From Desulfovibrio sp. UIB00 (GTDB taxonomy: Bacteria > Desulfobacterota > Desulfovibrionia > Desulfovibrionales > Desulfovibrionaceae): a stretch of 40,000 nucleotides of DNA. The notes beneath the pieces were generated by a model. It saw only the letters and a list, made by a program, of their open reading frames with translations. It was not told where the DNA came from and made no database searches. Positions 1 through 34,322 of this stretch are shown piece by piece. Numbering within the stretch: position 1 is the first letter of the stretch; every line of letters starts with the position of its first letter. The stretch is taken from NCBI RefSeq assembly GCF_022508225.1, contig NZ_JAETXJ010000003.1:79556-119555 (forward strand), read 5' to 3'. Position numbers and translations under genes: made by a program.

Positions 1-163
1 TGATGATTTAATTGCATGAAATAACAGCATATTAATATTTATCTGTGTAACGCTGCGAGTGGTTGGCTATTTTACTGCGAAACCTGTAGTCTTGCTCCAT
101 ACAAAGCGGAGGTTGTCCTCCCCCCGAATATTCCAGTCACTCCGCAAACTGAAGGAGAACCAT

Positions 164-24236: not shown

Positions 24237-24248
24237 CACCTTTCGCGT

Positions 24249-24325
24249 CGGGATGTAGCGCAGCCTGGGAGCGCACTTGAATGGGGTTCAAGGGGTCGAA
24301 GGTTCAAATCCTTTCATCCCGACCA
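24249..24325 (+). tRNA. tRNA-Pro (anticodon GGG)
   Basis: Hand-folded cloverleaf. Acceptor is CGGGATG/CATCCCG and D arm GCGC..GCGC. The anticodon stem CTTGA/TCAAG has loop A-T-GGG-G-T. T arm is GAAGG-TTCAAAT-CCTTT, with discriminator A and an encoded CCA. Confidence 0.9.
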
Positions 24326-24327
24326 GA
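24281..24327 (+). repeat. attL: 47-bp direct repeat (tRNA-Pro anticodon loop to CCA plus GA)
   Basis: atggggttcaaggggtcgaaggttcaaatcctttcatcccgaccaga is identical at 31965-32011. Confidence 0.85.
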
Positions 24328-24333
24328 ATTTGG

Positions 24334-24365
24334 GGGAATTCATGGAAACATGAATTCCCTTTTTT
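24334..24365 (+). terminator. tRNA terminator hairpin (island-side version)
   Basis: gggaattcatg-gaaa-catgaattccc followed by tttttt. The same sequence occurs in reverse complement at 34194-34225, and a variant at 32020-32050. Confidence 0.8.
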
Positions 24366-24384
24366 CGTTGGTGGCGAGGAGCCG

Positions 24385-24849
24385 TTATTCAAATGCAGCT
24401 CCATATATTTTTAAGCGAATCCATAACCTTTTAACAGGATTAACCTCCCACCCAAATGCTAGTTTCGGAAAATTTTGAGTAGACCCTATTGCAAAAGCAC
24501 CCACAAGCCGCTCCCCAGTACGGCATTTAATTTCGCAATGTTGATTATACTCCATATTCTCTAGTTTACCTCTCTTTTCAATGTCATATCTGTCGCATTC
24601 TGACGCGCATTCACCAATCCAAGGGATTGACTCCAATTGTCCATCCTCTTTAATAAATCCATAGTCTCGTATGGAAATAGGTCGAAAGCTTTTGCTAACG
24701 ATAAACATAGCATCTCTATCATCCATTTCAGAACGGTAGGAGCCATATTTAACTACAAATCTATCCTTCCTCTCAAACAACTTATCATAAATAACGATTA
24801 TACCGCCTATTGCAGATATAAGAATTCCAAAATCAGACAGATTTATCAT
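24385..24849 (-). CDS. Hypothetical single-TM protein (paralog of 33710..34174)
   Basis: 154 aa. N-terminal TM is FGILISAIGGIIVIY, followed by a Cys-containing ~125-aa domain (WIGECASECD...CEIKC). It differs from the second copy at 21 of 154 positions by eye, mostly conservatively. No family was recognised. Confidence 0.7.
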   Translation of the reverse strand: MINLSDFGILISAIGGIIVIYDKLFERKDRFVVKYGSYRSEMDDRDAMFIVSKSFRPISIRDYGFIKEDGQLESIPWIGECASECDRYDIEKRGKLENMEYNQHCEIKCRTGERLVGAFAIGSTQNFPKLAFGWEVNPVKRLWIRLKIYGAAFE

Positions 24850-24962
24850 AATAAAAGCCTACCTTGCAGACTTTAAAATATTGTGTATGGGTCAAATTAA
24901 TTCATGGAAATATAGATTTTATTTTTTATTAAAAACTATGCATGAAATAGTGATAGCACAAG

Positions 24963-25418
24963 TTAGTTATTGCATCTATACATTTGCCTAACTAGCACTA
25001 CAATGAAAAGTAAAAATGACCATACAGATGTGATGCATAAAAAAATTAAATATTTAAATGTTTCAGTTGTATTATAATAGGCAAGAAGTGTTGCTATATA
25101 TGTAATACACCCAATGAAAGTAATGTATAAATAATTTAATAATAATATTTTAAAATATCCCTCTTTCTTGTATAATTGTAAATGTGGAGAATCAATAGAA
25201 AATAATATTGCTATTGCAGTAGTAATAAATCCAACAATAGATATTGTTGAAGATGCTACAATTGATGAGAAGCTATCTATTTTTTGGCAGACAATAGTAA
25301 AATAACATTCAAAAAAATTAGTTTTCGTGAGAAAGAAAAAAAGCATTCCAGGAATTGTCACGTTCATACATAGTAGCACTAGTGACATCGTCAGAATTTT
25401 GTTTGATTTTTTCTTCAT
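24963..25418 (-). CDS. RexB-like four-TM membrane protein
   Basis: 151 aa with a basic N-terminus (MKKKSNK) and four hydrophobic segments. Size, topology and a central stretch (KKEGYFKILLLNYLY) resemble remembered lambda RexB (144 aa). It lies directly downstream of the RexA-like gene. The start is uncertain (25418, 25388, 25367 or 25346). Confidence 0.65.
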   Translation of the reverse strand: MKKKSNKILTMSLVLLCMNVTIPGMLFFFLTKTNFFECYFTIVCQKIDSFSSIVASSTISIVGFITTAIAILFSIDSPHLQLYKKEGYFKILLLNYLYITFIGCITYIATLLAYYNTTETFKYLIFLCITSVWSFLLFIVVLVRQMYRCNN

Positions 25419-26259
25419 TAATAAAATCTCTTACTTTATCTATAACAACGTCATTTGCAATGTCTTTCTTATTCATTGTTGCCGCAATTGATTCTTCATT
25501 CTGTGATATGCTTATAATATCACTTACAGCTCCACTTCCAACGATATAAAAATCTGTGGCGGCTTCTCCAAATTCATGCTTAGCTTTAACTACAAATTTT
25601 TTTAAATCTTCATCCTTGATAGTAGAAGCAATTGCCTGAAATGATGCATTGATATCCTTTCTCTTCTTTGGTTTAATAATTATTTCAATAGCATCGGTGT
25701 CAGTTTCAATTTTGTCTCCGAAGTATTCTTTAAGACACTGAAAAATTCCATTATTCATTCCAACTTCAAAAGTTGCCCTTCCAACAAAGGGCATCTTCAA
25801 TACTTCTGCAGTGGTAGCAGAAGATGTGAGAGGATAAACTTTGAAATTTATTCCCAGAACATCGAGATTTTTTAAAATACAATTTATTAATTGCGTGAAT
25901 TTGGTAATTTTGGGTCCGTAAAAAGTTGACCCAATGCCAAAATAATCTTTTCTTGGAAGAATATATGACGCGAAACCCAATGATTCATCAGCAGATAGCT
26001 TATCATAAATATCAGACTGAGACATTTGATTTTCATTTATAGCTTTAATAATTTCTGAACTTTTTGTCATTACAAAAAGATATACTCCATCAGAAACATA
26101 AAATATAAATAATTTTTCACCGAATTCAGTTACTAAATTCTTTTTAAATGCAGCAGGGGCATGACGATCAAAATTACGAATAAATTCTCGCAAATTAAAG
26201 GAATATTTAGATTCTGTAGAATCCAGAACTAAATAGTGTGCGAAGTAGTTAACTTTCAT
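25318..26259 (-). CDS. RexA-like protein
   Basis: 313 aa from ATG 26259 (GAGGGA upstream; the ORF track starts at TTG 26310). By-eye collinear matches to remembered lambda RexA: LSADESLGFASY/LADDESLGFPSF, FYGPKITKFTQLI/VFGPTTSDLTDFL, PFVGRATFEV/HFIGRTTVKV, IEIIIKPKKRKDI/LDIVIKPKFKRDI. Confidence 0.75.
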   Translation of the reverse strand: MKVNYFAHYLVLDSTESKYSFNLREFIRNFDRHAPAAFKKNLVTEFGEKLFIFYVSDGVYLFVMTKSSEIIKAINENQMSQSDIYDKLSADESLGFASYILPRKDYFGIGSTFYGPKITKFTQLINCILKNLDVLGINFKVYPLTSSATTAEVLKMPFVGRATFEVGMNNGIFQCLKEYFGDKIETDTDAIEIIIKPKKRKDINASFQAIASTIKDEDLKKFVVKAKHEFGEAATDFYIVGSGAVSDIISISQNEESIAATMNKKDIANDVVIDKVRDFINEEKIKQNSDDVTSATMYERDNSWNAFFLSHEN

Positions 26260-26709
26260 GCATCCCTCATTATTTATCGTTTCATAAAAAATATCAGCAA
26301 ATTTAAACAATGCAACTTATTTCGAACAAGACATATTTAACTATCTAATTTTAATATGTTATTTGGAAAAAATTAGAATGATGCTATAAGAATACGAAGT
26401 TGTTCATCTGCCACTCATGGGTATTATTAGCTTTATTTCTCCCTCCTTTCCCCAATACCCCCCTCCAATCCTTCCGCCCCCAAATCTCCCCCTAGGGTTT
26501 GCCCTGGGTCGAATTTGAGCCCTACTGCGATTTTTTTCTTGGAATGATGGTTGGGTCAGGATTTGTTAAAAAATCCCCTTAGAATCAAAATTTGGCCCAA
26601 AGTTCGATTTCATATGGTAACGGCAAGATCATGCATATATGCAAATAAAATCGCTCTATTGAATATTTTCAGATAGATATGTGAATACAATCTATTTGGA
26701 GGTATTCTG

Positions 26710-27102
26710 ATGGAATGTAATGATTGGAAATTGATTTGCTGTTACACAAGGAAACGAGCAATCGATGATGGAATCATGGTTGATGTATCAGATTTTGTTA
26801 GCGACTTTGGGTTTATTGTTCCAGTTGCAATAACAAATAACCTTTTCACACGGTATATTCAGCCAACAAATAAATTGGCTGAAGCTGGACAATCTTCAGA
26901 ATCAAGAATGATTGATTTGCTCGTTGTTATGATGATAAAATTATTTCAACGACCAAATACAGAACAACTTTCATTCAATGTTAGCTTTGACATGGAATAT
27001 GAAGAGAAGATTGAATCAAAGCTCGTTCAAATCTTAGCGGTAATCGGTCAAGGTGATGCTGGGGAACCAGTGCTGACAATAATGCTACCTGAAGACTTTT
27101 AG
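26710..27102 (+). CDS. Small acidic protein of mobile-element type (possibly DUF6573-like)
   Basis: 130 aa with GGAGG 6 nt upstream. YTRKRAIDDGIMVDVSDF...GFIVPVAIT...PVLTIMLPEDF resembles small proteins I recall from plasmid and ICE accessory regions. The family name comes from memory only. Confidence 0.55.
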   Translation: MECNDWKLICCYTRKRAIDDGIMVDVSDFVSDFGFIVPVAITNNLFTRYIQPTNKLAEAGQSSESRMIDLLVVMMIKLFQRPNTEQLSFNVSFDMEYEEKIESKLVQILAVIGQGDAGEPVLTIMLPEDF

Positions 27103-27113
27103 TTAAAAAAAAT

Positions 27114-27139
27114 GGCCGGAATTAGTCCGGTCTTTTTTT
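27114..27139 (+). terminator. Rho-independent terminator
   Basis: 7-bp stem (ggccgga/tccggtc, with one G:U) and a 5-nt loop, followed by T7. It is preceded by an A8 run, so it may act in both directions. Confidence 0.7.
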
Positions 27140-27612
27140 GTGAATTAATAACTTAGCAACTTAATATGGTATGAGGCAGTGTTCATGGTGATTGAAAAGA
27201 TGTTCAAGCGATGAAGCAACTGTATGAAGCGTGTATCAATGATCTTAAAAACTAACTGTAATAATTGACAAAATAAATCTGTCCGTTAATTTTGAGCTAC
27301 GATTTCGAATGGATTTTGCCGTTAAAATCACATCACAAGGAGTTATTGATGAGAAATGCTGTCTGTTTTGTATTAGGTATGTCTAAGATGCTTACATTAC
27401 ATCATATTCCATGAACTTTGCTTAATCAGCGGTCCTATGCCGCATGATTAGCGAACTGTCTTCTTATTATTGCAACATGATGATTTTATTATATTTGTAA
27501 AGAAAGTTATTTTATTTAAGTATGTTATTTAGTCGTAGTTTAAAAGTATTCACAAAATTATTTTAATTACGGTGAGTTATGAAACAATACAGAATTTGCG
27601 AAGGTTTTAAAC

Positions 27613-28641
27613 ATGAGCATCGTACAGAACACACCTCAAGAGAATTCTAACTTTAAAGCACTGAGTTTAGAAACACTTTTAAAACAAAGCTACAACGTTG
27701 AATATCTGATTGATCAAATTCTTCCAAAAAATGAATCACTGTTAATTGTTGGAAAATGTGGATGCGGAAAATCAACTTTGGTGATGCAGATCGCTGTAGA
27801 GCTTTGCGACCCATCACATAACTTGTTCTTAGGTCTGTTGCCAATTTCACCAAGTCCACAACCTCGCAAAGTACTCATAATCCAAGCTGAGAACCATGGT
27901 GGAGGACTTTCGAAGCATTTTACCGAAATGCTTCAAGGACGGTCCATGGCATCGTGCCAATCGATTTTGACCGGAATCTATTTCATGAGCAACAAGCTCA
28001 CAGGTAGGGCCAGCGGTGATTTGATGGCACCAGCGTTTTACGCAGAGGTTGAACGGCTTCTTGCAGCCGGGCACTACGATGTTGTTATTCTGGACCCTCT
28101 CGCGAGTTTCCATTCGAGCGAAGAATTCAATAATGAGCAGATGCGGCGCGTATTGGATAGGTTGCAAGCTCTCACTGAGAATTACCATGCAACGCTGATT
28201 GTGGTGCATCACGATGGTAAAAATCCCGCAAACTCTACTGGGGGTCGTGGTGCAAGCTCAATCGGAGATTGGGCCGCAAACGTGTGGCAGATTCGGAACA
28301 ATAAAGGAAAGTTTGAGCTTGAGAATCTTAAAGCTAGGAATTCTGCAAGGTATCCATCAGTGATTAAGCTCGAGTTGAAAAATTCCATCTTTACTGCATC
28401 ATCAGCAACATCTAATTCGTTACATGCAGACCTTGCATATGTTGTTAATGCTTTAAAAAATCTGAATGGACAAGCGAATTCAACTAGCGATTTGGTTAAT
28501 GAAACGTCAAGGTTACTTAGAAATGATGGAAAAGCATCTTCACCGAGCATTGCAAGACCATTAATTGATAAAGCTGTAAATTCTGGATTAGTTACTGAAA
28601 TTCATCCAGGAGGAAATAAGATTACGTTCAAATTGATTTAA
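27613..28641 (+). CDS. RecA-fold AAA ATPase (RepA/AAA_25-like) with C-terminal winged-helix-like tail
   Basis: 342 aa. Walker A is GKCGCGKST and Walker B VVILDPL, with a LIVVHHDGKN sensor-like block. This type is typical of replication or mobilisation ATPases of small integrative elements. Confidence 0.8.
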   Translation: MSIVQNTPQENSNFKALSLETLLKQSYNVEYLIDQILPKNESLLIVGKCGCGKSTLVMQIAVELCDPSHNLFLGLLPISPSPQPRKVLIIQAENHGGGLSKHFTEMLQGRSMASCQSILTGIYFMSNKLTGRASGDLMAPAFYAEVERLLAAGHYDVVILDPLASFHSSEEFNNEQMRRVLDRLQALTENYHATLIVVHHDGKNPANSTGGRGASSIGDWAANVWQIRNNKGKFELENLKARNSARYPSVIKLELKNSIFTASSATSNSLHADLAYVVNALKNLNGQANSTSDLVNETSRLLRNDGKASSPSIARPLIDKAVNSGLVTEIHPGGNKITFKLI

Positions 28642-28653
28642 CAATAATAAATA

Positions 28654-28707
28654 GGTCTGTATCTTTTATGAATACACACTATTAGTTAACTATAAAAGGT
28701 ACAGACC
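28654..28707 (+). terminator. Long imperfect hairpin after the ATPase gene
   Basis: ggtctgtatctttta ... tataaaaggtacagacc: arms of about 16 bp with one mismatch and a loop of about 20 nt. Confidence 0.5.
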
Positions 28708-29165
28708 GTTATTAAAGTAAATTCCAGTTATATTTAAATTTCAGGTATATTTTAAAAAAAATTCAATAAAATCAGCATGTTTTGAATATGTAAATTTTGA
28801 AATTTACAAGCTGAAAAGTTATTGTAAGCTAATAAAATATTTGAATATTTTAAATTTCAAACTGCTATATATAATAATGGAATGCAAAAACATTCCAATT
28901 ATTATTTTCTCTACACGCTCGATACTCACTGCATCACTGTACTTCATTTTCATTTCAAACACTTCATAGAGATATTTTTAGGAATACATATTAATGTGTT
29001 CAACAAAAGCATTGGTAAAACCTACTGGTTCTTTTGTTTACGGAGGTTTGTGTTGAATATTGCAATGCAATTATGGAAGCTACAATACCTAGTTAGAAAT
29101 TCAAAGCTATTAAGGAAGATTGTGATTGAAACAATAGTTACAATTTTAAAAAGCAGAATTTAACC

Positions 29166-29190
29166 AAAGAGTGTGTACACACTCTTTTTT
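29166..29190 (+). terminator. Perfect palindrome plus T-run
   Basis: aaAGAGTGTGTACACACTCTtt (18-bp perfect core at 29168-29185) runs into a T6 tract. Confidence 0.6.
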
Positions 29191-29241
29191 ATCACTTGAA
29201 TATAGATATTCTTCATAAAAATATGTCTTATGGAGAATGCT

Positions 29242-29655
29242 ATGAGTAAGAAATCACCTGATTCACGTGTTGATAAAGTTAAGAAGCAGGAATCAAAGTA
29301 TGATGCAAATGTGTTGCGGGATTTGATTCGGAACGGCAAAACCGCTTCGGAAATCATGCTGGCAATGGATATTGGTCACAAACAGATTTTGAAGCATCAC
29401 GTTTTGAAACTGATCGCTACTGACAAGGAATTCTACGAAGTTCCGGGACTGTACGATAAGAACCGCCGTAAGGCCTTCGTAAACAGCCGTGGTGAAATCC
29501 GATTAAGGATGCCCAATATCGATTTCAAGGGAATGTCTCTTGAACCAGATACCGAATTTGATGTGGTGGTGGAAGATGATAAGATCATCCTGATTCGCAT
29601 TGTAGCAGAACCGAAGCTAGATTCGTCCAAAATCCTCGCCGTGAGCGATTTGTAA
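29242..29655 (+). CDS. Putative DNA-binding regulator with AbrB/SpoVT-like C-terminal domain
   Basis: ATG 29242 is preceded by GGAGA (the ORF track starts at 29230). The C-terminal GEIRLRMPNIDFKGMSLEPDTEFDVVVEDDKIILIRI looks like a swapped-hairpin (AbrB/MazE) fold, and the N-terminus is basic. The call is tentative. Confidence 0.5.
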   Translation: MSKKSPDSRVDKVKKQESKYDANVLRDLIRNGKTASEIMLAMDIGHKQILKHHVLKLIATDKEFYEVPGLYDKNRRKAFVNSRGEIRLRMPNIDFKGMSLEPDTEFDVVVEDDKIILIRIVAEPKLDSSKILAVSDL

Positions 29656-29885
29656 TCGCAAGGAGCCACTTCAGAAAATGGGGTGGCCTTTTAATTATAA
29701 CAACGCTGATTTGTTAAAAAATGGAACGTCCGATTTGTACCAGAAACGGACATTCAAATGTTTGACGGGGTGAAATTAAATAAATTCAGCCTGTTATGTG
29801 GAGTTCCAAGGGAAACCCTATCCCTGTCCCCAAAATGAATGTCCAAATTCTTGGACTTTTCATAACGAAACGTAAATTGGAGTAC

Positions 29886-30452
29886 ATGATCATGAAGGTG
29901 CAGCCAATTACTGATCTGAAGGATATTAAGCGCATCAAGCGATTGTTGTCATCTAATCCGAGAAACTTGTTGCTATTTATAATGGGTATCAACGCAGGGT
30001 TACGAGTCCAAGATATTTTGGCATTGCGTGTGACTGATGTTGAATATGCTGTTGTTGGAGATCGTATAACTGTGATTGAAAGGAAGACAAAGAAAGAGAA
30101 TGTGCTCATCATTAACCAGGAAATTTATGATGCCGTGCAACGGTATCTGGCCTTTCATAAGCAGCGTGTTCCGAGGGAGTTCCTGTTTAAGAGCCGGAAA
30201 GGTTGGAACTACCCACTGAGCACATATGCTGTAACCCATATGGTCCAGGGCTGGTGCGATGAAATCAATCTGGCCGGCAATTACGGTGCTCATACCCTTC
30301 GCAAGACGTGGTGTTACCAGCAACGAAAGCTCTATGGCGTGTCCTGGGAGTTACTCGCGAAAAGGATGAACCATTCCAACCCCGCAGTAACTCGCCGTTA
30401 CCTTGGCATCCAAGCTGAGGAAGTGGAAGAAGTGTTGCTCAATGCTATCTAG
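29886..30452 (+). CDS. Short tyrosine recombinase (catalytic domain only, ~186-188 aa)
   Basis: GLRVQD (Arg I region), AHTLRKT (H-x-x-R), a NHSN His and RRYLG (catalytic Tyr). The start is ATG 29886 or 29892, with GGAG at 29879-29882. The ORF-track N-terminal extension is unlikely to be real. Confidence 0.75.
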   Translation: MIMKVQPITDLKDIKRIKRLLSSNPRNLLLFIMGINAGLRVQDILALRVTDVEYAVVGDRITVIERKTKKENVLIINQEIYDAVQRYLAFHKQRVPREFLFKSRKGWNYPLSTYAVTHMVQGWCDEINLAGNYGAHTLRKTWCYQQRKLYGVSWELLAKRMNHSNPAVTRRYLGIQAEEVEEVLLNAI

Positions 30453-30633
30453 CACAGCTTTAAAAAAATTTGAAAAAAAATTGTGTATGATGAAGTCGCA
30501 CAACTGTAATGAGCTGTATGAAAAAGTGTCTGAGCAACTTAAAAAACATGTCGTTTGCTTAAAATAATAATGACGTGCTATCGGATATCAGCTCTACCAA
30601 AATAATGGTAGCAACTTCAACAGGAGATAATTG

Positions 30634-31737
30634 ATGAGCGTACACCCACATAAAGATGGGCGCTGGATTTGCACGTATTATCCAAACGGCATACGGAAGG
30701 ACAAGTCGTTTGGGCGCGGTCCTGATGCAAAATCTTCAGCAGACTTGTTTGATTTAGAAATGAAAAAACTTTACTCAAATAAAGGAACTCATTGCGAATC
30801 AGTCGTACCAGTACAAATCTCTGAGCCAATGAAACCTTTAAGCCAGATGACCTTTGGAGGACTGGTAGAAGAGTATCTTCAGCATAGTCGGGCGAATGGT
30901 TCCACAGAAAACCATTTAGACAGCATTTTGAGTGTCGCAAATGCGCTCTTTTACCCGGCATTTGGAAAGGAAAAGCTGATTGTAAGCTTCGATTATGGAC
31001 ACGACATCTTGCCGTTCATGACCAAGATCGCAAACGAGCCTTCTCAAAGGGGGAGTTGTCGTGCGACAGTAACCGTGAACAAGTACGGACACTTTCTCGT
31101 AGCTCTGTTCAACTACGCAATAGCGCGTGACTACATTTCAAACAACCCTATGCGCCTTTGGAAAAAAGCAAAGGTCAAAAAAAAGGACATACAGCTTACA
31201 ATTGAAGATGCACAAAAGATTATGCATTGTGCTGCGCCTCACTTGAGATGGGCAATGGAAGTATGCTTTAATTTGGGGACACGCTCTGGTGAATCAGAAT
31301 TACTTTCATTGAAATGGTCAGACGTAGACTACGAGAAAAAGATGGTCCATGTCTACGGCAGAAAGACAAAAACGGACCGGTTCATACCAGTCAGTGATGA
31401 GTTTCTTAAGAAGCTTGCAGAAAAGCAGGCTGTCGCCCGTACAGATCACATTGTTGAATTTCGAGGCAGACCAATTCGAATGATTCGTAATGCGTTCCGT
31501 CAGGCTGTGAGAAAAGCTCAAATTACATATCCTGTTCGCATGTATGATTTGAGACACCTTTTTGCGACCTCTCTCATCAGTGCAGGGGCCTCAATTGGGT
31601 CAGTTTCGAAGCTGATGGGTCATGCTCGAATCTCAACAACGGTCAATGTCTACTACCAGGTCAAGCAGGAGGAGCTGGAGCGCGCGATGAGCATTTTACC
31701 CAAGCTCGAAGTGAACGATGCTAAGACGGGCTCTTGA
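30634..31737 (+). CDS. int: Tyrosine-type site-specific integrase
   Basis: 367 aa with AGGAGA 6 nt upstream of ATG 30634. It has an N-terminal SAM/arm-like region, TRSGE (Arg I), YDLRHLFAT (H-x-x-R), GHARISTT and VYYQ (Tyr). It lies about 230 bp from attR. Confidence 0.9.
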   Translation: MSVHPHKDGRWICTYYPNGIRKDKSFGRGPDAKSSADLFDLEMKKLYSNKGTHCESVVPVQISEPMKPLSQMTFGGLVEEYLQHSRANGSTENHLDSILSVANALFYPAFGKEKLIVSFDYGHDILPFMTKIANEPSQRGSCRATVTVNKYGHFLVALFNYAIARDYISNNPMRLWKKAKVKKKDIQLTIEDAQKIMHCAAPHLRWAMEVCFNLGTRSGESELLSLKWSDVDYEKKMVHVYGRKTKTDRFIPVSDEFLKKLAEKQAVARTDHIVEFRGRPIRMIRNAFRQAVRKAQITYPVRMYDLRHLFATSLISAGASIGSVSKLMGHARISTTVNVYYQVKQEELERAMSILPKLEVNDAKTGS

Positions 31738-31755
31738 GGGCCAAAAACAACCAAC

Positions 31756-31788
31756 CAGGATAGCGAATAGTTCGTTGTCCTGTTTTTT
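31756..31788 (+). terminator. Rho-independent terminator of int
   Basis: 12-bp stem (31756-31767 / 31771-31782, two G:U pairs) with a 3-nt loop, followed by T6 (31783-31788). Confidence 0.75.
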
Positions 31789-31847
31789 GCTGATTAAAAA
31801 ACCATCAGTGGAAAAAATATTACTGTATAACAATGTTACGACAAAGC

Positions 31848-31897
31848 AAAACGCCAAAAACATGTTGGCGTATAATTGGCGTATAATTGGCGTTTAA
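31848..31897 (+). repeat. Tandem 11-bp repeats TTGGCGTATAA x2 plus TTGGCGTTTAA, with an upstream inverted copy
   Basis: Copies at 31865-31875, 31876-31886 and 31887-31897. The inverted aaaacgccaa lies at 31848-31857. The array sits between int and attR. Confidence 0.7.
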
Positions 31898-31964
31898 TAT
31901 TAAATATGAACTGTTAATATATTAATAATAACCAATGTAATATTAGTATATAAGATTATCTGTG

Positions 31965-32011
31965 ATGGGGTTCAAGGGGTCGAAGGTTCAAATCCTTTCA
32001 TCCCGACCAGA
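31965..32011 (+). repeat. attR: displaced 3' part of tRNA-Pro (47-bp direct repeat)
   Basis: Identical to 24281-24327. There is no tRNA 5' half upstream, only AT-rich island DNA. Confidence 0.85.
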
Positions 32012-32019
32012 GATTTAAA

Positions 32020-32050
32020 GGGAATTCATGGAAACATGAATTCCCTTTTC
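32020..32050 (+). terminator. Host-side version of the tRNA terminator hairpin
   Basis: gggaattcatg-gaaa-catgaattccc followed by ttttctc. The spacer to CCA differs from the copy at 24328-24333. Confidence 0.6.
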
Positions 32051-32249
32051 TCGTTTCTAACGGCTGTTTTTCCGCTTTCTATCGACAAAAAAACAGATTC
32101 CCCTGCCTGTAAGTATAAAAAATCCGTCTTTTTTACTTCATCAGGCATAATTTGTGCCAAAAACAGTTGCCTGACTGTTGTCGTCAAGAAAAAAAAGGAA
32201 TATGCAGAAAACAAACCTGTTTTTTTTGGCAAAACCAAGGAGGGTCATC

Positions 32250-32930
32250 ATGTTTAAGCGTCTCATGCTTGCATTTGTTCTGTCCCTGGCACTCGCAGCT
32301 CCTGCGGCTGCGGAAAACACCGGCGTTTATGGCGGCTTAAAATTTATTGATTCCATTCAAAGCACTGGCCCGTTCTCTTTGAGCGGGGATGTGAAGGGGC
32401 TTGGCGTTGGTCAGTATTCGCAAAACACCGTTGGGGGCGGTATTTTTGTGGGGTACGACTTTTACCCGCATTTTCAGGTGCCCATGCGCACAGAACTGGA
32501 ATATGCCATACGCAGCAATATGACCAAGACCTGGGATCAGAAAGTAAATGGCGGCACGGCATCGTTCAAGGGCGAGTGGGGCGTGCAAACTCTGTTTGCC
32601 AACGCATATTGGGACTTCCACAACTCCACGGCCTTTACTCCTTACCTCGGCGGCGGCCTCGGCATGGGATTCATCAAGACCAAGTACACTGCGGATGTTG
32701 ACGGCGATGGGGATTCCGGCAGCCTGACGCAGTATGATACCGTTTTTGCATGGAATCTCGGCGCGGGCTGTTCCTATGCCTTTACGGAAAACATCTCGGC
32801 AGATCTGGCCTACCGCTTTGTGGGGCTGGGCTATACCGACATCAGCAAGCGCGTTGACGACAACAAGGTTTCCATCGGCAATACTCCGTATGCCAATGAA
32901 TTCAGCCTTGGCCTGCGTTTTACGTTCTAG
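32250..32930 (+). CDS. Outer-membrane beta-barrel protein (OmpW/Opa-like small porin family)
   Basis: ATG 32250 follows AAGGAGGG. It has a signal peptide ending LALAAPAAA, alternating beta-strand pattern and a C-terminal LGLRFTF motif. Confidence 0.8.
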   Translation: MFKRLMLAFVLSLALAAPAAAENTGVYGGLKFIDSIQSTGPFSLSGDVKGLGVGQYSQNTVGGGIFVGYDFYPHFQVPMRTELEYAIRSNMTKTWDQKVNGGTASFKGEWGVQTLFANAYWDFHNSTAFTPYLGGGLGMGFIKTKYTADVDGDGDSGSLTQYDTVFAWNLGAGCSYAFTENISADLAYRFVGLGYTDISKRVDDNKVSIGNTPYANEFSLGLRFTF

Positions 32931-32964
32931 GCATAGGAAAAGACAAACTGTCAGCTAGATTAGT

Positions 32965-32993
32965 GGGCCGGGGATTTCTCCGGCCCTTTTTTT
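32965..32993 (+). terminator. Rho-independent terminator
   Basis: gggccgg-ggatttct-ccggccc followed by T7. Confidence 0.85.
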
Positions 32994-33094
32994 ATGTGTT
33001 GTTGCCGCAATAACCGCGCTTGTCTTCGGTTGACCACACCGATGGATAAAAATAATATAAAGTATCTTGTCGCAACCCTGTTACTGGAGATGTT

Positions 33095-33559
33095 ATGGAC
33101 CTGAAGAAAGGACAAAGCATAATTGATGTCTTTGATGCGCTGTTACAGTCTACAGATCCAGCCCTCGCGCATGTGCGGGTAGCGCCAGACGCATGGACGC
33201 TTACGGAAATTGTCGGCCATCTTGTGGATTCTGCTGCCAACAACCATCAGCGGTTTGCCCGCTTGATATCGGGCAACCTTGAACAGTTTCCCCCATATGA
33301 CGCGGAAATATTTGTGACTGTTCAGCAGTATGACGGCTGTGATTTTGCAGAAATGGCAAAGTTCTGGCGGCAATATAACTGGATGCTCATGCACATAATG
33401 CGGGCAATACCAGCCACTGCCCTTGAGAATATGTGGCAGCGCCCGGATGGGGCAAAGTCGCTACGGACTCTTGTTGAAGGCTATTTTGAGCATATAGAGA
33501 TGCACGCAGACCAGTATCGCGAGCGCATGCAGATGGTAACGACTCATATTTTTGGTTAG
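33095..33559 (+). CDS. DinB-superfamily (DinB_2-like) metal-dependent protein
   Basis: 154 aa with WTLTEIVGHLVDSAANNHQR and a C-terminal YFEHIEMHADQ His pattern. Confidence 0.7.
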   Translation: MDLKKGQSIIDVFDALLQSTDPALAHVRVAPDAWTLTEIVGHLVDSAANNHQRFARLISGNLEQFPPYDAEIFVTVQQYDGCDFAEMAKFWRQYNWMLMHIMRAIPATALENMWQRPDGAKSLRTLVEGYFEHIEMHADQYRERMQMVTTHIFG

Positions 33560-33709
33560 AAGCAGGAATTAGCGGTAAAATATCAAATTTTGCATCTGGT
33601 TCTAAAATTTAATAAAGTTCATGAAGGCATGAAGTTCATTACAATCGCAGACAGGAATGAACTGAGTTGAATATTCAAAAGCTCACTATTTTCCTTGCAG
33701 GTATTACCT

Positions 33710-34174
33710 ATGATGAATCTGTCGGATTTTGGAATTCTTATTTCTGCTATAGGTGGTGTAATTGTTATATATGAAAAAGTTTTTGAAAAACGAGACAAAT
33801 TTATCATTAAGTTTGATTCTTATCATCCAGAAATGGATGATAGAGATGCAATGTTTATAGTTAGTAAAAGCTTTCGACCTATCTCAATAAGAAACTATGG
33901 CTTTATAAAAGAGGATGGACAGTTGGAGTCAATCCCTTGGATTGGTGAATGCGCGTCAGAATGCGACAACTATGATATTGAAAGAAGAGGCACATTAGAG
34001 AATATGGAGTATAATCAAATTTGCGAAATTAAATGCCGCATAGCGGGGCGGCTTGTAGGTGCTTTTGCAATAGGATCTACTCAGAATTTTCCGAAACTAG
34101 CATTTGGGTGGGAGGTTAATCCTGTTAAAAGGTTATGGATTCGCTTAAAAATATATGGAGCTGCATTTGAATAA
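33710..34174 (+). CDS. Hypothetical single-TM protein (paralog of 24385..24849)
   Basis: 154 aa from ATG 33710, in locally AT-rich DNA. The C-terminal 42 aa are identical to the other copy. It converges on tRNA-Pro copy 2. Confidence 0.7.
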   Translation: MMNLSDFGILISAIGGVIVIYEKVFEKRDKFIIKFDSYHPEMDDRDAMFIVSKSFRPISIRNYGFIKEDGQLESIPWIGECASECDNYDIERRGTLENMEYNQICEIKCRIAGRLVGAFAIGSTQNFPKLAFGWEVNPVKRLWIRLKIYGAAFE

Positions 34175-34193
34175 CGGCTCCTCGCCACCAACG

Positions 34194-34225
34194 AAAAAAG
34201 GGAATTCATGTTTCCATGAATTCCC
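34194..34225 (-). terminator. tRNA terminator hairpin (copy 2)
   Basis: Reverse complement of 24334-24365, identical. Confidence 0.8.
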
Positions 34226-34233
34226 CCAAATTC

Positions 34234-34310
34234 TGGTCGGGATGAAAGGATTTGAACCTTCGACCCCTTGAACCCCATTCAAGTGCGCTCCCAGGCTGCG
34301 CTACATCCCG
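34234..34310 (-). tRNA. tRNA-Pro (anticodon GGG), second identical copy
   Basis: Reverse complement is identical to 24249-24325. Confidence 0.9.
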
Positions 34311-34322
34311 ACGCGAAAAGAG

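Follow-up and report, generated by a model that had tools for sequence, protein, structure and literature searches.

The 40,000-nt stretch of DNA analyzed here (the window) carries two copies of a 154-aa gene, each beside one of two inverted tRNA-Pro genes. The gene is real and under purifying selection, and the copies are alleles delivered by two different islands, not products of an in situ duplication. We propose, with a probability of roughly 0.4, that it is autonomous cargo of the moron type, with a product that acts at the inner membrane and may take part in phage exclusion; the proposal draws on the position, mobility, and neighbors of the gene.

Two alleles at inverted tRNA-Pro genes

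Copy 1 lies on the minus strand (24385..24849) and copy 2 on the plus strand (33710..34174). Both appear in the list of open reading frames (ORFs), and copy 1 is further backed by homologous clusters, dN/dS, and an AlphaFold2 model. An earlier note on this DNA had described the two ORFs as converging on identical tRNA-Pro genes, and ARAGORN agrees: tRNA-Pro(GGG) genes were found at 24249..24325 (+) and 34234..34310 (−), identical and inverted, each 59 nt from the end of one 154-aa ORF. Between tRNA and ORF stands a terminator hairpin with a 13-bp stem, 23 nt from the stop codon of each copy (24332..24361 on the plus strand and, identical, 34198..34227 on the minus strand). Its T-run is on the tRNA strand only, and its role as a terminator of the ORF transcript is putative. 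Both copies are contained in a 644-nt inverted repeat (24207-24850/33709-34352) and, as had been noted, are AT rich, with a GC content of about 0.35 versus 0.55 to 0.62 in the flanks. Ungapped similarity within the repeat ends at the start codon, and similarity between the copies farther upstream fades within about 20 nt. A simple scan upstream of the copies found no sigma-70-like promoter.

The copies differ at 60 nt and 21 of 154 residues, with no stop codon or frameshift, confirming the earlier count. The last difference sits at residue 113, so that the final 41 residues are identical, one fewer than the 42 originally counted. All 60 nucleotide differences fall within the first 375 nt of the ORF, where divergence is 16%. 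By the Nei-Gojobori method, the comparison gave 36 synonymous (Sd) and 24 nonsynonymous (Nd) differences, a dS of 0.53, a dN of 0.068, and a dN/dS ratio of 0.13; so few nonsynonymous changes would be very improbable under neutrality (binomial P = 3e-11). These data show that the gene has been under purifying selection. The further claim that selection maintains both copies stands as far as purifying selection goes, but present-day maintenance of both is not proven by it. Since the copies are alleles from two islands, the low ratio mostly records selection that acted before they shared a genome.

Island 1, its cargo slot, and the remnant of a second island

Island 1 is a 7.7-kb, low-GC element bounded by a 47-nt perfect direct repeat. 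The attL core (24281..24327, plus strand) is the 3′ part of tRNA-Pro copy 1, which hosts the attB site, and is 100% identical to the attR core (31965..32011, plus strand). The island encodes two tyrosine recombinases, an AAA_25 ATPase, a DUF6573 protein, RexA, RexB, and, outermost and proximal to the tRNA, the 154-aa protein. The RexA-like gene (25318..26310, minus strand) was recognized by Pfam (1.1e-52) and PADLOC (9e-54), and the RexB-like gene (24963..25418, minus strand; PADLOC, 4e-6) lies 113 nt upstream of copy 1. Copy 1 is thus downstream of a RexAB-like pair on the same strand, as the earlier note had it.

The inverted tRNA-Pro pair is also found in the sister genomes G446 and G349. 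In G446, which is about 95% identical in the flanks, the order is tRNA-Pro(+), a porin-like gene, a DinB-like gene, and tRNA-Pro(−); the island and the 154-aa gene are both absent, and both tRNA-Pro sites are empty and carry the native terminator. Because G446 has both tRNAs without an island, the pair is ancestral; in the window, each of the two sites is occupied. Terminator alignment separates two versions of the hairpin. The native version is present at both empty sites of G446 and at attR of island 1, where it follows the core at 32011-32055. The island-type version is present at attL and at copy 2 in the window and at attL of another relative, G485.

BLAST comparison with G446 showed that a 654-nt low-GC insert (33533..34186, plus strand) replaces the 61-nt spacer of the empty site. 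The insert consists of copy 2 and 177 nt of upstream DNA. Since its terminator is of the island type, copy 2 sits behind a genuine island junction. By this comparison, copy 2 is the remainder of a second, related island that was deleted down to one gene. An integrase and an attR are absent at copy 2. A decayed attR was considered for the upstream DNA (33533-33709) and rejected, as local alignment to the att and terminator sequences scored no better than shuffled sequences (P = 0.14). The left edge of the insert (33532/33533) lies inside the DinB-like gene (33095-33559) and overwrites its last codons; the C terminus of the product reads ...RERMQMVTTHIFG here and ...RERMQQIQDLAHI in G446.

The identity of the two C termini looks like a product of gene conversion and not of constraint. 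The N-terminal 112 residues of copy 2 match the metagenome allele P0003 at 111 of 112 positions, while the C terminus of P0003 differs from that of copy 2 at 6 of 42 positions, and the C termini of alleles P0002 and P0003 differ from both window copies. The positions of the differences and the allele C termini delimit an identical 234-nt tract spanning the ORF 3′ end, the hairpin, and the tRNA (24241..24474, equal to 34085-34318), which was probably homogenized between the copies by gene conversion. The simplest reading is conversion of copy 2 by copy 1, seeded by the inverted tRNA repeats. A constraint imposed by integrase arm sites was considered for this tract and rejected: the G485 integrase is 97% identical, yet the DNA beyond the hairpin is unrelated there.

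Comparison with G485 also delimits the cargo of island 1. The G485 island is 97% identical to window positions 26460-32992, and one unannotated 445-aa gene in the same orientation (L020 5293-6630, minus strand) replaces the block made up of the 154-aa gene, RexB, and RexA (24370..26459, minus strand). Another relative, G493, has other unannotated single genes, encoding 210 and 206 aa, at its two tRNA-Pro copies (L012 822-1454 and 3411-4031, both minus strand). Because G485 and G493 carry other genes there, the tRNA-proximal position is, judging from these alignments, a slot whose cargo changes from one close strain to another. The suggestion that the place just inside attL holds exchangeable cargo was therefore borne out. 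That it is specifically a defense slot is not shown, because the alternative cargo genes are unannotated; the 210-, 206-, and 445-aa genes had no match in Pfam or PADLOC, and they are candidate cargo genes in their own right.

Whatever the 154-aa protein does, the locus is a clean example of att-proximal slots in tRNA islands exchanging single-gene cargo between close strains and of an island decaying to one retained gene. It also illustrates how DNA lying between inverted tRNA copies can undergo gene conversion, and probably inversion, driven by those copies. In G485 (L020, G485:C1:736000-750000), the flank found to the right of tRNA-Pro copy 2 in the window adjoins the island, attR, and the porin-like gene. 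Since the island side is joined to the opposite flank, the whole segment between the inverted tRNA-Pro genes (24249-34310) is inverted relative to G485, which fits recombination between the tRNA repeats.

The protein family and its predicted structure

A word-indexed search returned nine close proteins, all metagenomic. When 1.84 billion representatives were searched with a profile, 96 cluster representatives reached an E value of ≤1e-3 and 30 of them ≤1e-10, and so homologs do exist elsewhere, a point on which the earlier reading had depended. Family members are mostly 150 to 170 aa (about 160) and align end to end; longer ones look like over-extended start calls. With length unrestricted, the profile search found no fused or split forms, only single-domain proteins. 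Of 111 species genomes searched within the genus, 3 had a member; a search of 400 further genomes from the phylum found none.

The description of the family as unrecognised holds across the databases. Pfam has no family for the window copies, and 1 of 62 members gave a chance CENP-C_C row; the same 62 members had no match in NCBIfam. None of the 62 matched PADLOC-DB 2.0 at an E value of ≤0.01, the window copies giving only a chance REase_II row (E = 0.014). The best PHROGs row for the two window copies, at an E value of 0.095, was a PHROG of unknown function. The family profile had no match among PDB sequences at an E value of ≤10, and the ESM Atlas offered unnamed look-alike clusters (0.93) and no named cluster. 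In IMG/VR (2.9 million contigs, six queries), only one contig was found to carry a member. No match was found by tblastn in cultured phages with the remote member P0104 as the query or in plasmids with P0104 and the window protein.

In an alignment of 62 sequences, the conserved positions are D29, D62, G64, F65, S74, and A120, with a DYGF-type motif; no catalytic set or motif is recognizable among them. The Cys cluster that had been put forward as conserved is restricted to the close subfamily. C81 is the only invariant Cys among 10 close homologs, and only 4 to 6 of the 62 members have Cys at the four positions, so the cluster is not a family feature.

AlphaFold2, run on the 62-sequence alignment, gave a model with a pLDDT of 90.9 and a pTM of 0.78. 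It has a helix at residues 4 to 26, eight strands within residues 31 to 132 interrupted by a short helix (75 to 81), and a helix at 138 to 153. The strands form a two-sheet sandwich of about 100 residues, which places the body in the Ig-like β-sandwich class. The N-terminal segment is hydrophobic throughout the family (mean Kyte-Doolittle value, 1.87). Lys and Arg average 3.4 after this transmembrane (TM) segment and 1.5 before it, with the C-side excess in 51 of 62 members. By the well-established positive-inside rule, this excess would place the body in the cytoplasm, and we infer an N-out/C-in topology. The C-terminal helix is basic and amphipathic (family mean, 4.0 K/R and 0.16 D/E) and probably lies on the inner leaflet.

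Fold searches with both models (Foldseek against PDB and BFVD and a wide VIA-align search) returned generic Ig-like sandwiches, archaeal pilins, and FlaF/FlaG, with scores (VIA-align Z ≤ 7.3; Foldseek E ≥ 0.006) that lie within the nonspecific range of the tools. About 100 PDB chains reached a VIA-align Z of 5 to 6.5, nearly all of them Ig-like domains. The protein resembles archaeal type IV pilins and FlaF/FlaG in having an N-terminal hydrophobic helix followed by an Ig-like β-sandwich. Chain 5tug_A aligned over 104 residues with a Z of 7.3 and an rmsd of 3.8 to the first model but with a Z of 6.2 and an rmsd of 7.7 to the better one, and 8fk7_A had a Foldseek E value of 0.03. Scores in this group (Z, 5.5 to 7.3) fall in the range of chance arrangements and are nonspecific. 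By inspection, neither the N terminus (MINLSDFGILISAIGG) nor the family consensus has a G/A-cleavage motif with a conserved charged +5 residue, as in a prepilin-type site. The β-sandwich of pilins is external, but the charge bias here points to a cytoplasmic domain, and pilins lack the basic C-terminal helix. A type IV pilin- or archaellin-like identity was rejected on these grounds: no cleavage motif, positive charge after the TM segment in 51 of 62 members, and nonspecific Z scores.

Other loci and possible function

Genomic context was read at six loci, belonging to five organisms or elements, among the roughly 100 clusters. In five of the six, the member lies at the edge of an integrated element, and a tRNA gene or an att-like tRNA fragment is found 59 nt to about 1.1 kb away. 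Each of the four Desulfovibrio copies occupies a low-GC islet 3′ of a tRNA gene. In Desulfovibrio falkowii, the member is in a 2.2-kb low-GC islet 3′ of tRNA-Ala(GGC), between two unannotated genes. This islet is flanked by 37-nt GC-rich hairpins (L003 8946-8982 and 11193-11229) that are exact reverse complements, one of them being the tRNA-Ala(GGC) terminator. In G008, the member ends a 1.6-kb low-GC islet 3′ of tRNA-Ser(CGA). Before it come a HigA-like gene and an unannotated ORF whose translation suggests that it may be a HigB-like partner; the member converges on a probable BioF-like (biotin synthesis) gene, likewise named from its translation. The earlier note had asked whether homologs always lie next to tRNA-Pro or RexAB-like genes. 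The association with tRNA genes stood for the Desulfovibrio copies and extended to other tRNAs; the one with RexAB did not recur. By tblastn (E ≤ 0.01), RexA and RexB were absent from L003, L021, L022, L007, L008, L009, L020, L012, and L011.

The remote member P0104 is on the IMG/VR viral contig L007. A partial tRNA 3′ end that looks like a prophage att site lies about 700 nt away, with P0104 on its inner side. The fragment (around 68-115, minus strand) has the T-arm, acceptor strand, and CCA but no 5′ half and is followed by a terminator. P0104 is followed by a DUF5677 gene, a Gp49 and HTH_3 pair, and lysis genes (DUF2514 and GH19) about 3.5 kb from the family member. In a different organism (L009), a member 83% identical to P0104 lies between an Mrr_cat nuclease gene and a GNAT gene. 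The surroundings there (GNAT, sulfate permease, and Usp) have a host-like GC content, and there is no tRNA within 20 kb. L007 and L009, a prophage and a chromosome, have only 509 nt in common, spanning the ORF at 81% identity, so the single ORF is the unit that moves. The gene is autonomous: copy 2 and the L009 member stand alone, L007 and L009 share only the ORF, and RexAB is absent from the other loci.

Taken together, these loci suggest that the 154-aa gene is autonomous single-gene cargo (a "moron") of elements that integrate at tRNA genes. It entered this genome twice, with two related tRNA-Pro islands; the second of these was later deleted down to this gene, and the tRNA-proximal 234 nt were homogenized. 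The N-terminal helix would tether the protein to the cytoplasmic membrane with the Ig-like body in the cytoplasm. Expressed from the integrated element, the protein might protect the host or the element against phages or rival elements at the inner membrane, either by interfering with the entry of a genome or by disturbing the membrane after detecting a phage product.

Prophage superinfection-exclusion membrane proteins, such as those of the lactococcal Sie2009 type, HK97 gp15, P22 SieA, and T4 Imm, are small and have an N-terminal membrane helix. Temperate elements carry them as single autonomous morons close to the end at which they integrate, and the genes are expressed while the element is integrated. 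The 154-aa protein shares with this class a small size, an N-terminal TM anchor, and a position as a single gene at an element edge. It differs from these proteins in that no sequence relation was found (a scan of the window copies against PHROGs, which includes such families) and in that its domain is predicted to be cytoplasmic, not external. Classical injection blockers would be matched better by a periplasmic domain than by a cytoplasmic one. Against the exclusion reading, too, are the lack of a conserved catalytic motif, the lack of a match to any defense model, the generic fold matches, the single member-bearing contig found in IMG/VR, the tblastn searches of cultured phages (P0104) and plasmids (P0104 and the window protein) that gave no match, and the promoter scan that identified none. 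A role in exclusion or defense is a guess drawn only from the gene's neighborhood, which across loci includes RexAB, HigBA-like pairs (two loci), an Mrr-like nuclease, and DUF5677. A bolder version, to which we give somewhat less weight, is a new single-gene anti-phage or anti-element system in which the Ig-like domain would act as a sensor that binds a phage product, the TM and amphipathic helices would perturb the membrane or block entry, and the cassette would hop between att-proximal slots. If the protein does exclude phages or rival elements, it would be a very small system that needs no partner and is anchored in the membrane, built on a fold so far unconnected with defense. It would come from sulfate reducers of gut and sediment, a group about whose phage biology little is known.

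It is possible, to about the same degree as that bolder version, that the gene encodes an accessory membrane protein with no part in defense, for instance a lysogenic-conversion-type factor whose β-sandwich modulates an inner-membrane transporter, chemoreceptor, or envelope process of the host and which is kept because the host or the element profits from it in a gut or sediment niche. Ig-like sandwiches serve generically in protein binding, no defense model matches any of the 62 members, and the L009 member sits among ordinary genes at host-like GC. This account has to accommodate the patchy distribution (3 of 111 species genomes of the genus) and the recurrence of the gene at element edges beside RexAB, toxin-antitoxin-like pairs, and a nuclease. 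Proximity to the HigBA-like pairs in two loci and to the lysis genes of L007, together with the single TM helix and the basic amphipathic helix, could instead point to a toxic or lysis-related protein, either an addiction toxin with an unrecognized antidote or a holin/antiholin-like accessory, whose helices damage the membrane when deregulated. We consider this unlikely: there is no conserved partner gene, copy 2 and the L009 member are solitary and no small adjacent ORF recurs between loci, and a free-standing toxin without an antidote would not stay intact.

Slightly less likely again is that copy 2, or both copies, are decaying hitchhikers without a present function that owe their preservation only to having arrived recently and to conversion by copy 1. 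As a relic, copy 2 has neither integrase nor attR, no sigma-70-like promoter was found upstream, and the low dN/dS may predate arrival in this genome; set against this, copy 2 is intact over 465 nt despite the 16% divergence of its first 375 nt, keeps 177 nt of its own upstream DNA and a Shine-Dalgarno-like AGG, and belongs to a family that is conserved as a whole. The relation to Rex deserves separate mention. The 154-aa gene shares with its neighbors, the counterparts of the phage lambda RexA/RexB abortive-infection pair, its island, strand, and swappable cargo block, and RexB is also a membrane protein. A third RexAB component, cotranscribed with rexA-rexB and needed for or modulating Rex exclusion, would account for the same-strand position 113 nt downstream of RexB and for the exchange of all three genes as one 2.09-kb block versus G485. 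This interpretation is largely refuted and now seems highly improbable. The 154-aa protein is unrelated in sequence to RexA and RexB, neither of which was found by tblastn at any other member locus examined; copy 2 has no Rex genes; and, going upstream from the start codon, the copies cease to resemble each other within about 20 nt. The reading that we prefer remains an autonomous cargo gene acting at the inner membrane.

Minor features of the L007 and L009 contexts were also noted. The DUF5677 gene (L007 1301-2143) overlaps the stop codon of P0104 by a few bases, and because of this overlap the two genes may form an operon in the L007 prophage. A DUF5677-type neighbor has no counterpart at the other loci read; the 258-aa neighbor in D. 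falkowii was compared with it and showed no relation. A preprint lists DUF5677 among domains enriched near defense-associated recombinases (PMC12632615), which is weak support at best for the defense reading. The L008 locus is 99.9% identical to L009 except for a 1.3-kb insertion (L008 8278-9604), about 460 nt upstream of the member, that is absent from L009. The translations of its ORFs read as transposase-like, and the insertion is apparently an insertion sequence.
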